A stretch of DNA of 64,000 nt, taken from NCBI GenBank assembly GCA_965212015.1, contig OZ243037.1:32001-96000 (forward strand). The letters are read 5' to 3'. The notes under the pieces are model-generated. The model was not told where the DNA came from, searched no databases, and was given only the letters and a program-made list of their open reading frames with translations. Below, piece by piece: positions 10,040-58,679 of this stretch. The stretch is from Cenarchaeum sp. (GTDB taxonomy: Archaea; Thermoproteota; Nitrososphaeria; Nitrososphaerales; Nitrosopumilaceae). Position numbers and translations under genes: made by a program. Position 1 is the stretch's first letter. Each line of letters begins with the position of its first letter.

Positions 10040-10160
10040 CCCAAGCTAGCTCAGCCTGGTAGAGCTTCCGGCTGTAGATGTCGGCTTTAGGCTGACCGTA
10101 CAACAGCATATCAGGCATACAGAGACCGGGTTGTCGAAGGTTCAATTCCTTCGCTTGGGA
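10040..10160 (+). tRNA. tRNA-Tyr(GTA) with canonical 37/38 intron (~10078-10124)
   Basis: CCCAAGC/GCTTGGG acceptor (C1-G72, A73), anticodon GTA at 10074-10076, T-arm GAAGG-TTCAATT-CCTTC. Confidence 0.93.
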
Positions 10161-17278: not shown

Positions 17279-18330
17279 TGCTCTGTGTCACAACTCCCTT
17301 ACCTCATATCGTGATCCTCCCACCCGTGCCAGAGCAATCCAACCCACACCGGTATGACGTCATGCGGCCAGCACCATCCTGTTGTATATGGCCATCTTTA
17401 GTGCCATCTCGTGCATCATGTTCTCTTTTTTGTGTGCCATGACTGATTCTCCGAACATTCTCTTTATTGCAGAGAATAACGATTCAACAAGCCATCGTTT
17501 TCCATATCCGGAGGATTTCTTCCATTCCGAATAGTCGTGTTTTTGAATCCTGACTGCCATCCGGCGCGGATATGACGGCGTGTCAGATCTTGAATTTTTT
17601 CTGACGGGTACTGCCAGTTTAATATTATTGTAATACATGTCGTCAAATATCACTCTGGAATCATACGCGCCGTCTGCCAGCACACATCTCTGCATTGCTG
17701 TGACTGCTCTACCAGTTCTGTAAAATGATTTGAATCATGCGAGCTTTCATCCGTAGTTACAAATCCCGTTGTCTTTCCGGAATCTACGTTAATGGCGGCG
17801 TGTATTTTTATGAATCCCTTTCTTGTCACGCCATGTTTTTCTCGCATCCAGTCGCCCCTGTTTGTTACTTTTATTCCCGTGCTGTCTATTGCAATTACAA
17901 TTGTACCGTGTGTCTTTCTGTCTGTGGTAAGATCTAAATCCAGGTTGTTGATCCGTTTGCAGATGGTAGAATATGATGGCACTGTTGTATGCATTCCAAA
18001 CAACGATTCTGCAAGGCCCTATGTCTGTCTGTATGGCAGTCTAAAGTAGAGATGAATGTATGCCAGAACGGTAATCATTTCATCAGAATATAGGAATCTG
18101 CGTCCCGTCTTTCCCTTGTTCATCCTATTCCGATCTCTCTCGAATGATTTCAGGACACGTTTGTCGATGTGGATGACTCCGCGGTCCCTTAACCTGCAGT
18201 CATAATCCGAATTTTTACCCACGGTGTGGTCGTGTAGTCATGATCTAAAGCTTTTTGGGTTGGATTATGTGGACAGGCAGCCTAGATTAGTTTACGCTGG
18301 AAAAAATTAGGCAGCTTGTGACACAGAGCA
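17279..18330 (-). mobile_element. IS5-family insertion sequence, copy 1 (transposase disrupted)
   Basis: 15-bp TIRs TGCTCTGTGTCACAA / TTGTGACACAGAGCA. DDE motifs IAIDSTGIK, KIHAA, LADGAYD, GYGKRWLVESLFSAIKRMFG. In-frame TAG at 18019 and a frameshift near 17690. Confidence 0.93.
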
Positions 18331-38459: not shown

Positions 38460-39569
38460 ATGTTTGAGAGCCTCAAGTCCGCTTTTTCGGGGGTGGCCAA
38501 AAGCTTCGGGCAAAGGCAGCTAAAGGAAAAGGACATCGACGCCGCACTCTCCGGCATGGAGCTCGACTTGATGAGATCCGACGTGGCAGTGGAGGTCATT
38601 GGCGCCATAAAATCGGATCTAAAGTCAAAGATAGCCGGGACAAGCGTCGACAGGCACGGCATTGAGGATTTTGTCAAGGACAGCCTAGTCGGGATAGTGT
38701 CGGGCATCTTTGACGGCGCCAGAAAAGTCGACCTGCTGGGGGACATTGAGAAAAAAAAGACGGCCGGCGAGCCGTACGTGATAGTGTTTGTCGGAATAAA
38801 CGGGACCGGCAAGACTACCAGCCTCTCCAAGCTTGCGCGCCTGTTGCAGGACTCAAAGGTCTCAGTCGTAGTCGCCGCCGCCGACACGTTCCGGGCCGGC
38901 GCAATCGAGCAGCTCCGCGAACACACAAAAAACCTCAACCTGAAAATAGTGGCGCAAAACTATGGGGCCGATCCCGCCGCAGTCTCGCGCGACGCGGTGC
39001 TTTATGCAAGATCGCACAAGGTCGACTGCGTGCTAGTCGACACGGCAGGGCGCATGCAGACAAGCAAGAACCTCATGGAGCAGATTGAAAAAATCATAAA
39101 CGTCGTAAAGCCGGACTTTATCATCTTTGTGGGCGACGCCCTTGCGGGAAACGACACGGTAAACCAGGCAAGGGAGTTTTACGGGCACACAAAGTTTGGC
39201 GGATCCATCCTGGCAAAAAGCGACGCCGACGCAAAGGGCGGGGCCGCCCTGTCGATAGTAAAGATTACCGGCTCGCCCATACTGTACATGGGGGTGGGGC
39301 AGCGCTACGAGGATTTGGTGCCGTTTGAAAAGGACTCGTTTCTGCGCGCCGTCTTTGGCACGACAGGCGCGCCGGCAGCTGATCCGTTTGAGGGCATATC
39401 TGCTGGCGACATTGACTCGTATAACGCGGCGTACGGCACGGCGCCCCCCGAGAACGACGAGCAGACAGCATCCGTTATTCGGGAGTGGATACGGTCCGGA
39501 AGGCCGGCGCCTGGCGGGCCGGGGAAAACTAGAAAGCCGAGCTCGTTGCTTGGTAGGTTTGGAAAATGA
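38460..39569 (+). CDS. ftsY: SRP receptor FtsY
   Basis: GINGTGKTT, DTFRAGAIEQL, DTAGR, DADAKGG. Confidence 0.95.
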   Translation: MFESLKSAFSGVAKSFGQRQLKEKDIDAALSGMELDLMRSDVAVEVIGAIKSDLKSKIAGTSVDRHGIEDFVKDSLVGIVSGIFDGARKVDLLGDIEKKKTAGEPYVIVFVGINGTGKTTSLSKLARLLQDSKVSVVVAAADTFRAGAIEQLREHTKNLNLKIVAQNYGADPAAVSRDAVLYARSHKVDCVLVDTAGRMQTSKNLMEQIEKIINVVKPDFIIFVGDALAGNDTVNQAREFYGHTKFGGSILAKSDADAKGGAALSIVKITGSPILYMGVGQRYEDLVPFEKDSFLRAVFGTTGAPAADPFEGISAGDIDSYNAAYGTAPPENDEQTASVIREWIRSGRPAPGGPGKTRKPSSLLGRFGK

Positions 39570-40468
39570 AGCTTGGAACCAGGGACTTTCTGTCCTTTGC
39601 AGAGCTTGACGGCGGCGAGACCGAAAAGCTCGTGGATCTTGCAATACGCCTCAAAAACGGGGGCCAGTCAGGCCGCCTCGAGGGCAGGACCCTGGCCATG
39701 ATCTTTGAAAAGCCATCAACTAGGACGCGCGTAAGCTTTGAGGCCGGCATGCACCAGCTTGGCGGCCACGCCATATGCATGGCCCCCGGCGACATGCAGC
39801 TCTCGCGCGGCGAGACTATCGCCGACACCGCACGCACGCTCTCAGGATACGTCGACGTGATAATGGCGCGCGTCTTTGAGCACTCTGTGCTAGAGACGCT
39901 GGCAGAAAACTCGTCAGTACCGGTGATAAACGGCCTCTCTGACTCGTTTCACCCCTGCCAGACACTCGCCGACCTGATGACCATACGTGAAAAAAAGGGG
40001 CGGCTTGCAGGACTAAAGCTGGCGTGGATTGGCGACGGCAACAATGTCTGCAACTCTGTGATTTACGGCTGCGCCAGGGCCGGCATTGACGTATCGGTTG
40101 CCACGCCGCGCCAGTTCGGGCCGCTGCCAGACGTGGTAGGCGAGTCAAGAAAGGCAATCGACGTGGAGCTAAGCGACGATCCGTCCGAGGCCGTAAGGGA
40201 TTCTGACATTGTAATGACTGACACGTTTTCGTCGATTCACAACACGGATGCGGGGCGCACCGAAAAGTTCCTGCCAAAGTTCCAGGTCGGCGACTCTTTG
40301 ATGGGGCAGGCCAAGGATGACGCGATATTCATGCACTGCCTTCCGGCCAAGCGCGGACAGGAGGTCGCAGCGTCCGTAATCGACGGGCCGCAGTCCGCGG
40401 TGTGGAACCAGGCAGAAAACAGGCTGCACTCCCAAAAGGCGCTGCTGCTCTCAATACTGGGCGCCTGA
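39566..40468 (+). CDS. argF: Ornithine carbamoyltransferase
   Basis: FEKPSTRTR, HPCQ, GDGNNV, FMHCLP, QAENR. Confidence 0.96.
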   Translation: MKLGTRDFLSFAELDGGETEKLVDLAIRLKNGGQSGRLEGRTLAMIFEKPSTRTRVSFEAGMHQLGGHAICMAPGDMQLSRGETIADTARTLSGYVDVIMARVFEHSVLETLAENSSVPVINGLSDSFHPCQTLADLMTIREKKGRLAGLKLAWIGDGNNVCNSVIYGCARAGIDVSVATPRQFGPLPDVVGESRKAIDVELSDDPSEAVRDSDIVMTDTFSSIHNTDAGRTEKFLPKFQVGDSLMGQAKDDAIFMHCLPAKRGQEVAASVIDGPQSAVWNQAENRLHSQKALLLSILGA

Positions 40469-40831
40469 GGCCTGCATTATGTGGTGTTTGGGCGGCTATT
40501 GGAGACGCGTAATGCCGTGACTGGGCGCGAATCCCGTAAAATGTCCTGACATGCCAGGCGATCATTTAGAAATACCTGTGTTTCATAAATACCAAAACAT
40601 GTTTTTTTGCACTCTGTAAATGATTAAATTTTCAGGAGCGCGTTTTCTAACTTCGTCAATTAGTTGAGTGCATCTTTTCATTGAGTGGTGCCGGATGATC
40701 TCCCCGGTAAACTCTGCAACAGTTTCCATCACGGCCTTGTATGTATCCGCATGAAGGGTCTTTAAAAAGAATTAAACGTCGAGTTAAAATTAACATGAAG
40801 TACATGGGTCATATAAAAACATAAAGAGGAT

Positions 40832-40927
40832 TTATTTATCTTTGCAAGACTTGTCATACTCTACAAATATTTCGTCGTCTTTCTTGCTCCACTCTGGAGT
40901 AGGTTTAAGCTTGGCTGGCTTTGCCAT
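40832..40927 (-). CDS. Small ORF (31 aa), possible antitoxin-like remnant
   Basis: MAKPAKLKPTPEWSKKDDEIFVEYDK; doubled TTTATAAT element just upstream. Confidence 0.35.
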   Translation of the reverse strand: MAKPAKLKPTPEWSKKDDEIFVEYDKSCKDK

Positions 40928-41160
40928 GCCTGATCTGCCCTGCTCGAATTTATAATCGTTTATAATCTGGCTCAATCAGCCGGGCCGGACACGAGGCAGA
41001 TTCCTCCCAATCCGCCGGATCCGGACGGCGGGATCAGGCGTGCCCTGGAATCCGGGATTTTGCGCGGCGAGCTGGCGGTGGCATGCGGCAGAAAAGACGT
41101 CCTTCTGAGGATCCCTGCAAAGCCCGAACGTATCGGTCACGGCACGCAAGGCCCGGAGGC

Positions 41161-41212
41161 GGCACGGGTGGGGGGATCACGTTATGAGGTAAGGGAGTTG
41201 TGACACAGAGCA
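41161..41212 (+). mobile_element. Solo right end of the IS5 element
   Basis: GGCACGGGTGGGGGGATCACGTTATGAGGTAAGGGAGTTGTGACACAGAGCA, near-identical to the end of the 52917-53955 copy. Confidence 0.9.
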
Positions 41213-41322
41213 GATTGTCGAACCGATGGGGCGCCCCCAAAGGGGCATCACCCACGCCATATCTCTATGGATACTATTTTTCAGGTAATATTATTACATA
41301 CTTGGTATATTTTAACATTTAT

Positions 41323-41405
41323 GGGCTAGTAGCGAAGTGGCCAAACGCGGCTATTTTTCAGGTAGCAATCTCAGGATTACATGGGTTCAAATCCCATCTA
41401 GCCCA
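41323..41405 (+). tRNA. Atypical class II tRNA: tRNA-Leu-like body with TTC (Glu) anticodon
   Basis: GGGCTAG/CTAGCCC acceptor plus A73; D-stem GCG/CGC; anticodon arm GCTAT-TTTTCAG-GTAGC; 14-nt variable arm AATC-TCAG-GATT-AC; T-arm ATGGG-TTCAAAT-CCCAT; followed by T6. Confidence 0.85.
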
Positions 41406-41685
41406 TTTTTTGCCGTGCCTAGTCATAGATCACGTTACTGAACCTCATAATCTGCAGATATGGGCAATGATAAACTCCTCTTTTAAGGAACTTGTTGCTC
41501 GTACTGTTCATCCGGCAGTCCACTATTGCGCGGGCCATAATCTCCGTGTTGTCGTATCAACTACAGGGTGTCTATACCCCACAATCGCCTCGGGCGGGGC
41601 AGAAAAGATGCCGGCGGCGATCTGACCGGTTGCGCGAATTTTCATCTAACGTTTATAAGAGCATATTCAATTTTTTGCGCTATAG

Positions 41686-42165
41686 ATGGCCCATTCAAGG
41701 ATATTGAGGAGACTAAGGGAGCAAAAAACCAACTACAAAAAGCGCAGCGGCATGCTCATGGGGCGCCGCGACTTTGTAACGGTCCAGATTACCAACGAAA
41801 ACACGCAGGTTCAGGTCCATACCCCAGAGATGGCAGGCGACAAGACTGTGGCCTCGGCGCATTCCAGGTACCTCTCATCGAAGGGCTGGAAGGGCTCGCG
41901 CAAAAACATCCCGGCCTCGTACCTTACGGGATACCTGGCGGGAAAAAAGGCAGTCAAGAACGGCTCCAAAAACGCCATAATGTACACCGGGACTAGAAAG
42001 TACACCGAAAGAATGGCAGCTGCGCTAAAGGGGGTAATTGATGCGGGCCTCGAGATTCCCGCCGACGCCGAAACGTTTCCGGCGCAGGAGAGAATCAACG
42101 GGGATCACCTGAATGTAAAAAACAATGTCATGCAGATAAAATCAAAGATAGACGAGGAAGCATAA
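41686..42165 (+). CDS. rpl18: 50S ribosomal protein L18
   Basis: RRLREQKTNYKKR, ASYLTGYLAG, GVIDAGLEIP. Confidence 0.95.
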   Translation: MAHSRILRRLREQKTNYKKRSGMLMGRRDFVTVQITNENTQVQVHTPEMAGDKTVASAHSRYLSSKGWKGSRKNIPASYLTGYLAGKKAVKNGSKNAIMYTGTRKYTERMAAALKGVIDAGLEIPADAETFPAQERINGDHLNVKNNVMQIKSKIDEEA

Positions 42166-52916: not shown

Positions 52917-53955
52917 TGTTCTGTGTCACAAGCTGCCTAATTTTTCCCAGCGTAAACTAATCGAGGCTGCCTGTCCATACAATCCGGCCCAAAAAGCTCT
53001 AGATCATGACTGCACGACCACGCCGTGGGTAAGAATTCAGACTATGGCCGCAGCTTAAAGGACCGCGGAACAATCCATATCGACAAACGTGTCCTGAACT
53101 CATTTGGGAGAGATCGGAATAGGATGAACAAAAGACGGGACGCAGATTCCCATGTTCTGGCGAGATGATTGCCGTTCTGGCATACATCCGCCTCTACTTC
53201 ATACTGCCATACAGGCAGACACAGGGCCTTGCAGAATCGCTGTTTGACAAGCATACTATAGTGCCATCGTATTCTACCATTTGTAAACGGATCAACAACC
53301 TGGATTTGGATCTTACCGCAGGCAAAAAGACACACGGCACAATCGTAATCGCAATAGACAGTACGGGAATAAAGGTGACAAACAGGGGCGACTGGATGCG
53401 AGAAAAGCACGGCGTGACAAGAAAGGGATTCATAAAATTGCACGCCGCAATGAACGTGAATTCCGGTAGGGCGACGAGGTTTGTAGTTACAGATGAAAGC
53501 TCGCACGATTCAAATCATTTTACAGAACTGGTAGAACAATCACAGCAATGCGGAGACGTGTGCTGGCAGACGGTGCGTATGATTCCGGCGTGATATTTGA
53601 CGACATGTATTACAATAATATTAAACTGGCAGTACCAGTCAGAAAAAATTCCAGATCTGATGCGCCGTCATATCCGCGCCGGATGGCAGTCAGGATTCAA
53701 AAACACGACTATTCGGAATGGAAGAAATCCTCCGGATATGGAAAACGATGGATTGTCGAATCGCTGTTCTCTGCGATAAAGAGAATGTTCGGAGAATCAG
53801 TCATGGCGCACAAAAAAGAGAACATGATGCACGAGATGGCGCTAAAGATGGCCATATACAACAGGATGGTGCTGCCGCATGACGTCATGGAATGGACTGC
53901 TCTGGCACGGGTGGGAGGATCACGATATGAGGTAAGGGAGTTGTGACACAGAGCA
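52917..53955 (+). mobile_element. IS5-family insertion sequence, copy 2 (transposase disrupted)
   Basis: TIRs TGTTCTGTGTCACAA / TTGTGACACAGAGCA; same DDE motifs as copy 1; N-terminal deletions and the same frameshift near 53550. Confidence 0.93.
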
Positions 53956-58582: not shown

Positions 58583-58679
58583 GCCGGGATCGCCTAGCCT
58601 GGTAGGGCGCGCGCCTGGAAACTAAAGCCATAAAGCGCGTTCTCGCAAGGGAACGGGAGTTCAAATCTCCCTCCCGGCG
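58583..58679 (+). tRNA. tRNA-Ser(GGA) with 13-nt intron (58621-58633)
   Basis: GCCGGGA/TCCCGGC acceptor plus G73, CGCGC-CTGGAA[intron]A-GCGCG, long variable arm. Confidence 0.93.

Follow-up and report, generated by a model that had tools for sequence, protein, structure and literature searches.

The closest described analogues of the gene reported here are the nev-tRNAs of nematodes, which are described as being leucylated in vitro and as decoding GGG as leucine in vitro (PMC3333845, PMC4300185). The present gene, termed tRNA X, is located in a 64,000-nucleotide (nt) stretch of the genome of the archaeon Cenarchaeum sp. (contig OZ243037.1, positions 32,001 to 96,000, hereafter the window; Table 1). 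Like the nev-tRNAs, X is a class II tRNA with a long variable arm, is apparently derived from tRNA-Leu, keeps the leucine determinants, carries the anticodon of a different amino acid and is extra to the normal set. The nev-tRNAs are eukaryotic, conserved across nematodes and tend to match rare codons, whereas X is archaeal, patchily distributed (a search of 400 other genomes of the taxonomic family recovered members of its family in 3, and none of 4 genomes of the same genus has one) and would read GAA and GAG, which are common in the host. An upstream copy of the anticodon arm is absent from the nev-tRNA descriptions compared, whereas the X module has one. For X, expression and charging with leucine are predictions.

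The next closest system is tRNAProX/ProRSx of Streptomyces and Kitasatospora. As described, tRNAProX combines the body of one amino acid with the anticodon of another, mistranslates, and is toxic or helpful depending on the condition (PMC10404621). It is bacterial, has a proline body and usually lies beside a special prolyl-tRNA synthetase, whereas X has no extra synthetase. The comparison with Streptomyces drawn in a first-pass annotation of the window therefore holds for the mismatch of body and anticodon and not for a synthetase paralogue encoded with the tRNA. Allo-tRNAs, which were named there as well, have long variable arms and many anticodons. They are unusual tRNAs from genome mining, like X, and are defined by an acceptor/T-stem shape of 8/4 or 9/3 (PMC5389517, as far as compared). 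With its standard 7/5 shape (acceptor stem 7 bp, T stem 5 bp), X falls outside the allo-tRNAs, and this comparison fails on structure.

A short repeat of part of a tRNA gene within lineage-specific DNA is also a feature of archaeal attachment sites in tRNA genes. Compared with the sites described in PMC6563490, the repeats at X are only 77 nt apart, no element or integrase lies between them, and the upstream copy is located in the gene's own promoter region and co-varies with the anticodon arm. Mismatched tRNAs in the literature searched are nematode, yeast, human and bacterial; no archaeal case surfaced, which is no proof of absence.

Structure of tRNA X

ARAGORN calls a tRNA-Glu(ttc) at 41322–41406. 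Rfam model RF00005 matches X with 56.1 bits, above its gathering score of 29 (E = 2.1e-9), and all of the model positions 1–71 are covered. Both results place X among the tRNAs. X has a length of 83 nt and all stem pairs are standard (24/24). The acceptor stem (7/7), the D stem (3/3), the variable stem (4/4) and the T stem (5/5) consist of Watson-Crick pairs, and the anticodon stem is formed by four Watson-Crick pairs and one U-G pair. The variable region comprises 14 nt (AATC-TCAG-GATT-AC) and the discriminator is located at 41405. The bases at tertiary positions are all present, as far as checked by eye. The structure proposed for this stretch in the first-pass annotation is thus borne out.

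The energy of the cloverleaf is –25.1 kcal/mol for X, close to the range of host tRNA-Leu (–27.5 to –33.1 kcal/mol). Minimum-free-energy folding returned the cloverleaf neither for X nor for three host tRNA-Leu, so that its failure on X is uninformative.

The anticodon overlaps a T5 run (41354–41358). X might be an artefact or a mislabelled gene, resulting either from a sequencing error in this run or from a true tRNA-Glu in which a small intron is taken for a variable arm. Homopolymers are prone to errors, and oddly placed introns do occur in tRNA genes of this genome, for example in the T loop of tRNA-Glu(UUC). However, the run is constant in the contigs of sequencing runs X1 and X2, with no other letter observed (0 of a depth of 2622.8 in X1), although these runs may be the source of the genome assembly itself. 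The 14-mer that includes the T5 run is present a second time, exactly duplicated upstream. Reading from the sequence, no length of the T run yields a leucine anticodon in a 7-nt loop, which excludes the miscount that had been named as a possible refutation. A separate normal tRNA-Glu(UUC) exists, 93.5% identical over 62 nt to tRNA-Glu(CUC). The variable arm of X resembles that of host tRNA-Leu; by eye it is a simple, bulge-free hairpin (4 bp, 4-nt loop) and does not show the bulge-helix-bulge shape of an intron-bearing archaeal tRNA. An artefact is almost certainly the wrong explanation.

Runs X1 to X4 were all read as contigs, and the comparison of positions covers the rows listed for them. 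One letter is left out at 41406 in part of the depth of runs X1, X3 and X4, which leaves T5 in place of the T6 run following the tRNA.

Leucine-type body and redundancy in the host

The host genome consists of one contig (C1, 1.76 Mb, 51% GC). Among the host tRNAs, Leu(CAG), Leu(GAG) and Leu(UAG) are the three that X resembles most. tRNA-Glu(CUC) is not among the ten nearest host tRNAs, in a set from which the intron-bearing tRNA-Glu(UUC) was left out. With nhmmer, X scores 31.4 bits against a leucine profile, 6.2 bits against a serine profile and 5.4 bits against a Glu/Asp profile; X', its homologue in a genome of another genus, scores 22.0 bits (Leu) and 4.5 bits (Glu/Asp). These profiles are small and unequal (16 distinct tRNA-Leu from the host and relatives, three Ser and two Glu/Asp). 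One locus is from the unpublished genome G363, and the comparison within the host alone agrees without that locus. The leucine profile is thus above the Glu/Asp profile, in line with the order of isotype models that the first-pass annotation had expected. Additionally, X does not have the features of a tRNA-Glu: its variable arm has 14 nt and it has only 13 nt, in the T loop, in common with tRNA-Glu(CUC).

A review names A73, the variable-arm loop bases A47c and G47d and the basal U47h as the determinants of leucine identity in Haloferax volcanii (PMC9976931). The arm of X, AATCTCAGGATTAC, contains A and G at positions 7–8 and U at position 12, and A73 is at 41405; the same holds for X'. X carries all of these determinants, assuming the numbering of a 14-nt arm. 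The loop TCAG of the variable arm is common to X and the host tRNAs Leu(GAG) and Leu(CAG), and the arms are of equal length. Canonical archaeal tRNA-Leu, the nearest sequence relatives of X, are likewise class II tRNAs with A73, A and G in the variable-arm loop and the basal U. X differs from them by its anticodon UUC, which is none of the leucine anticodons (UAA, CAA, UAG, CAG, GAG), by a D loop that is 2 nt shorter, by its GC content (0.49 vs 0.59–0.65 in host tRNA-Leu) and by its position, which is not syntenic.

The leucine isoacceptors of the host are complete without X (5/5: UAG, GAG, CAG, CAA and UAA) and both normal tRNA-Glu genes are present, so that the regular genes sought elsewhere in the genome were found. 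On the evidence of its sequence, X is a supernumerary tRNA gene, structurally intact, which descends from a tRNA-Leu and has acquired the glutamate anticodon UUC. The leucine-type body with a glutamate anticodon described previously is confirmed.

Several host tRNA genes contain introns. The gene of tRNA-Leu(UAA) (C1:358975-359095) apparently has two, one in the D arm and one after the anticodon loop, and that of tRNA-Leu(CAA) (C1:1423471-1423571) has a single intron directly after the anticodon loop. In the window, the genes of Tyr(GTA) (10040–10160) and Ser(GGA) (58583–58679) have introns of 47 nt and 13 nt, respectively.

PF00133 has four matches in the genome, and the lengths of the open reading frames (ORFs) fit one synthetase each for Ile, Val, Leu and Met. 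There is one match of PF00749 (GluRS class) and there are two of PF00152 (class-IIb synthetases). None of the matches of these three families lies near X. As there is only one LeuRS-class (leucyl-tRNA synthetase) and one GluRS-class (glutamyl-tRNA synthetase) match, X has no dedicated enzyme.

Upstream module and copy of the anticodon arm

The sequence CTATTTTTCAGGTA is present twice in the X unit, at 41274–41287 (core1) and, as part of the anticodon arm, at 41351–41364 (core2). In X' both positions are occupied by CTGTTTGTCAGATA: three changes are mirrored exactly. The spacing of core1 and core2 is 77–80 nt among intact members of the family. In paralogue B, located elsewhere in the host genome, core1 and core2 agree at 11 of 14 positions and match the same places of X at 8/14 and 6/14, respectively. 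The upstream module is conserved to the same degree as the tRNA (60/77 vs 66/85 in X' and 56/76 vs 51/83 in B).

The spacer between core1 and the tRNA contains promoter-like boxes on both strands, named after the usual archaeal consensus. Rightward, GGTAAT precedes an AT box (about –35 to –23); the opposite strand carries ATAAAT and then TTAAAATA, about 25 nt from core1. The promoter-like box of X is positioned at the same distance as in nine host class II tRNA genes. The 13 nt preceding the tRNA (–13 to –1) are invariant in X, X' and B.

Two hairpins are located upstream of core1. In hairpin 2, a palindrome that folds on both strands, 93.3% of the cells are paired. A regulon of this palindrome was rejected because the genome holds just two CCATA-N4-TATGG sites. 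Hairpin 1 has GCGCCCCCAAA.GG in common with the region upstream of tRNA-Leu(CAG) (C1:1190552-1190660), and this 11-mer occurs three times in the genome. An origin of the unit from the tRNA-Leu(CAG) locus together with its upstream region is a weak candidate, since this motif alone is shared (p ~0.006, uncorrected for five comparisons). A tandem duplication was rejected: the flanks of core1 are unlike the halves of the tRNA (p 0.13–0.98; X, X' and B), so the upstream copy is not a decayed tandem copy. Candidate explanations for the copy are an antisense RNA that pairs with the anticodon arm, a recombination core, or templated copying without function. No description of such a copy surfaced in the literature searched, which reflects the limits of searching and is no proof of absence.

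Members of the family

Among 60 relatives, including four of the same genus, there is no full-length match to X; the matches span the variable and T arms only. Twenty of the 25 tRNAs called by ARAGORN in the fetched loci of relatives are tRNA-Leu. In a similarity search of the 400 other genomes of the taxonomic family, G393, which harbors X', was the only genome with a homologue, apart from a fragment in G366. A scan with a pattern of class II tRNAs with N-T-C-A-R loops recovered X, X' and a relic in G200. A further match of this pattern, in G180, was read as an ordinary intron-bearing tRNA-Leu. Patterns derived from X, X' and B gave no accepted match in public genome, viral and metagenome contig collections; a single pattern match in a Phascolarctobacterium metagenome-assembled genome was judged to be chance. 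A pattern of the promoter junction matched once in 400 genomes of the order (G087), inside a coding region without a tRNA, and this was likewise regarded as chance. A further variant was found in runs X3 and X4, on a contig that starts near 41281. Seven of its eight differences from X, among the rows listed, are within 18 nt (41354–41371) comprising the anticodon and the variable arm, and one is elsewhere in the ~130 nt compared.

U35-C36-A37 are constant in all five members with a known loop, with U, G, A, A and U at position 34. Positions 32, 33, 34 and 38 and the anticodon stem are variable. The anticodons are all NUC (UUC, GUC and AUC); thus the homologues neither have leucine anticodons nor decay at random, either of which would have spoken against the original proposal. 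In the alignment of X, X' and B, eight pairs are changed on both sides, compared with 4.0 ± 1.3 in shuffled controls (1 of 500 as high) and 0–1 in slid controls; this test comprises three sequences only and takes its structure from X. Compensatory changes maintain four stems. Homologues with covarying stems, which the first-pass annotation had called for, therefore exist, and its argument that intact stems speak against simple decay is strengthened by these changes and by the 24/24 pairs of X.

As compared here, the family consists of modules of ~200 nt (hairpins, copy of the anticodon arm, AT-rich promoter region, tRNA and T run) at varied, unstable sites in a few related archaeal genomes. 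Judging from these loci, it is small, mobile and patchily spread.

Table 1. Positions of tRNA X, its module, its relatives and surrounding features (window coordinates unless another sequence is given).
Feature	Position	Strand	Remarks
tRNA X	41323..41405	+	Class II cloverleaf, long variable arm, leucine-type body, discriminator A; from ARAGORN, Rfam and pair listing
Anticodon TTC (reads GAA/GAG)	41357..41359	+	7-nt loop TTTTCAG; same in contigs of runs X1 and X2
T6 run, archaeal terminator-like	41406..41411	+	T5 in some contigs
Core2, 14 nt of the anticodon arm	41351..41364	+	4 nt of 5' stem strand, 7-nt loop, 3 nt of 3' strand; repeat of 41274-41287, spacing 77
Core1, upstream duplicate (exact) of the 14-mer in the anticodon arm	41274..41287	+	–49 to –36 from tRNA start
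AT-rich spacer with promoter-like boxes	41288..41322	+	30/36 identical in X', 27/35 in B
Hairpin 2, palindrome CCATA-N4-TATGG	41257..41270	.	12/14 identical in X' and in B
Hairpin 1, GCCCC-CAAA-GGGGC	41233..41246	.	Another hairpin takes its position in X'
Paralogue B	C1:131606-131788	-	71% identical to X over 189 nt, including ~96 nt upstream and T run
X'	G393 (other genus than host)		81% identical to X over 157 nt; ARAGORN tRNA-Asp(gtc)
G366 relic	G366 (genus-mate of G393)		Upstream hairpins, one core, decayed 3' half; found by similarity
G200 relic	G200		Loop CTTTCAA, anticodon UUC; found with the pattern of class II tRNAs with N-T-C-A-R loops
Run variant	Runs X3, X4		Loop CUAUCAA, anticodon AUC; 8 differences from X among the rows listed
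tRNA-Glu(CUC)	C1:1594937-1595012		Normal host gene
tRNA-Glu(UUC), normal	C1:606266-606356		~17-nt intron in T loop; missed by ARAGORN and Rfam scan
Lineage-specific DNA between OTCase and L18 genes	40469..41685	.	1217 nt; contains X module, insertion sequence end and gene fragment
OTCase gene	39566-40468
L18/L5e gene	41686-42165
Solo right end of insertion sequence with DDE_Tnp_1 transposase	41161..41213	+	Outer end faces X
Decayed gene fragment with stops	41493..41640	-	tblastx; intact relatives C1:227266-227346 and C1:1144358-1144492

Genomic setting

The gap between the OTCase and L18 genes comprises ~40–365 nt in all five relatives checked, compared with 1217 nt here. The setting proposed initially, an insertion between argF (OTCase) and the L18 gene beside the end of an insertion sequence (IS), proved correct, and the inserted DNA is lineage-specific. 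In diverged contigs, 40461 or 40440 is joined to 41643, i.e. the two genes are directly joined. In a near-identical relative, 41168 is joined to 41591, and the 422 nt in between (41169–41590), including X, are absent. The depth of the X unit is 2–4 times that of the flanks and the chromosome, and in run X2 it is preceded by a different upstream sequence.

The 52-nt IS end next to X has eight other copies in the genome (87–96% identity; nine in all). IS copies are also located at 53165–53946 and 17279–17330 of the window. The copy at 53165–53946 has its DDE transposase divided between two ORFs that overlap (142 and 132 aa), suggestive of a frameshift. A reading of the translated paralogue makes the decayed gene fragment a candidate 'CAP/SCP-like' gene. 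The IS end, the X unit and the gene fragment are bracketed by the direct repeat GGCAGAAAAGAYG, which has copies at 41087–41100 and 41598–41611 (511 nt apart), near both ends of the 422-nt stretch missing from the near-identical relative. That relative does have the GC-rich region 40965–41160 (~61% GC), in which there is neither a long ORF nor an Rfam match (E 10). Two small ORFs, of ~47–62 aa and 31 aa (the latter starting with MAKPAKLK), are located in the AT-rich part of the insert (40583–40975, minus strand). Searches with Rfam at E values up to 10 returned, for 40300–41800 on both strands, only the tRNA and two sub-threshold chance matches. Pfam gave no match above the cut-off for six small ORFs and fragments in the vicinity of X, B and X'.

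In G393, X' is located between housekeeping genes and inside 52-nt inverted repeats (L033 9853–9904 and 10301–10352, 94% complementary), which also enclose a C-terminal fragment of an HNH endonuclease (L033 10172–10291). The 52-nt arm is a dispersed repeat with ~25 partial copies, and its outer end is loosely similar to the IS end beside X. The loci of X, B and X' have no neighbouring gene in common.

Discussion

The stems, the bases at tertiary positions, the TATA-like box and the T run of X fit a tRNA that would be transcribed. The reading that we favour, with a probability of about 0.4, is that X is transcribed, charged by LeuRS and able to read GAA and GAG as leucine, and that it is probably controlled by the conserved upstream module. 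X would have a TATA-like box of its own as promoter, spaced as is typical of the tRNA genes of this host, and would be matured like other tRNAs. Given the data on H. volcanii, archaeal LeuRS is taken not to read the anticodon, and the single host LeuRS would charge X by means of A73 and the A, G and U of the variable arm. Because its determinants fit charging by LeuRS, X should read GAA and GAG as leucine. It may compete with tRNA-Glu at these codons, leading to a low or conditional insertion of leucine. X would most likely be controlled or limited by the upstream module, which includes the co-varying arm copy.

Several observations weigh against this proposal. Both GAA and GAG are frequent in the host, at 20 and 39 per 1000 codons (59 together) in 615 long ORFs. 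A well-expressed tRNA inserting leucine at them would be costly, and the expression of X must therefore be low, conditional or harmful. For the nematode analogue no mistranslation was detectable in vivo, according to PMC4300185. The identity rules for leucine are derived from one haloarchaeon of a lineage other than that of the host. X itself has a low GC content (0.49) and a weak anticodon stem. No RNA run is among the ten sequencing runs returned for the X stretch. Furthermore, decay is frequent in the family: paralogue B (loop CCATCAA, anticodon AUC) lacks 5 nt from its T and acceptor stems, the G366 member lacks the promoter and the 5' half, the acceptor stem of the G200 relic is unpaired, and in X' two stem pairs are mismatched and the cloverleaf is weak (–13.1 kcal/mol). 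Finally, a plain translational role does not account for the co-varying upstream copy.

Alternatively, X may be a tRNA-like RNA outside translation, with its Asp/Glu-type anticodon loop (N-U-C-A) as the functional element. Its role would be that of a decoy, sponge or sensor, directed at a factor with specificity for the anticodon loops of acidic tRNAs, e.g. an anticodon nuclease or a modification enzyme. The cloverleaf would then serve stability and processing, and an arms race would vary position 34 and the stem. The constant U35-C36-A37 next to variable loop positions and a variable stem in all five members is consistent with this, as is the concentration of the differences of the run variant in the anticodon and the variable arm; the upstream copy would double the decoy, if transcribed. 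However, core1 is upstream of the likely TATA box and probably outside the tRNA transcript, and neither a nuclease nor another partner gene is common to the three loci, whose neighbours differ and whose small ORFs have no Pfam match. With its leucine-type body, X would even so be charged and take part in translation. We consider a decoy unlikely, and we rate as equally unlikely that X is a relic, i.e. a duplicated tRNA-Leu in junk or mobile DNA that drifts towards loss, with the anticodon UUC and the repeat as by-products of short templated copying. The position of X among an IS end and a gene fragment, its absence from the near-identical relative, the small number of genomes with a member (3/400) and the state of the family, in which B, G366 and the G200 relic, three of six members, are clearly dead, are as expected for a relic. 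A relic is difficult to reconcile with four stems maintained by compensatory changes, with the intact pairs and tertiary-position bases of X, with an upstream module that is as conserved as the tRNA and with the invariant NUC-A37 motif. Additionally, the pair of 14-mers is exact in two lineages although three substitutions separate them.

The co-varying copy is central to two further proposals. The module may be a selfish or conditional system of two RNAs, a toxin tRNA that accepts leucine and would misread codons for acidic residues (GAR for X, GAY for X'), and a small RNA on the opposite strand. This RNA would start in the shared AT-rich spacer, run opposite to the tRNA, complement the anticodon arm exactly with its first 12–14 nt, continue into two hairpins and mask the anticodon by pairing. 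If there is such pairing, the upstream 14-mer must change with the arm. X, X' and B do not differ in the stretch that contains the BRE/TATA-like pair of the minus strand. Folding favours the antisense over the sense strand in X (–23.3 vs –19.5 kcal/mol) and in B (–21.3 vs –14.4 kcal/mol), with the 5' segment unpaired, and in B the mismatches of both hairpins (2/2) are G-U pairs on the antisense strand only. The last hairpin of X' precedes a U6 run. On the other hand, the sense strand folds slightly better in X' (–22.5 vs –20.2 kcal/mol) and the U run is absent in X and B. A two-RNA system is distinctly unlikely. It is very unlikely that the 14-nt copies are cores of a site-specific system of the tyrosine-recombinase type, with the symmetric anticodon arm as crossover site and the module as attachment region of a mobile element. 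The identity of the cores would then be a condition or a result of recombination, and the G366 member has the form expected from core1 x core2 (upstream hairpins, one core, 3' half). Thaumarchaeal attachment sites are described as short (8–26 bp, median 17), with 39 of 68 mapped elements housed in tRNA genes (PMC6563490). The raised depth of the X unit, its other upstream context in run X2 and the inverted repeats flanking X' also fit mobility by recombination. Yet only 63 bp separate the cores, neither the 1.2-kb stretch nor the surroundings of B and X' contain an integrase, the core1 flanks are unlike the tRNA halves and the deletion in G366 is possible without an enzyme. The kept U35-C36-A37 and cloverleaf would remain unaccounted for. 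X does not correspond to the attachment site of an integrated element.

X is a real, unusual gene, for which a mistranslating role, with leucine inserted at glutamate codons, is predicted. Natural tRNAs with a mismatch of body and anticodon are rare and are the clearest route to an ambiguous or changed genetic code. If expressed, X could misread the code. The upstream copy, which changes with the anticodon arm, points to a mechanism of control or recombination tied to the anticodon itself. The system is useful because its predicted charging rule is simple (variable arm and A73, not the anticodon) and there is a single LeuRS, and the family provides three different acidic-codon anticodons as well as living and dead copies to compare. 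How a cell may tolerate, regulate or use the misreading of Glu and Asp codons as leucine thereby becomes directly testable.
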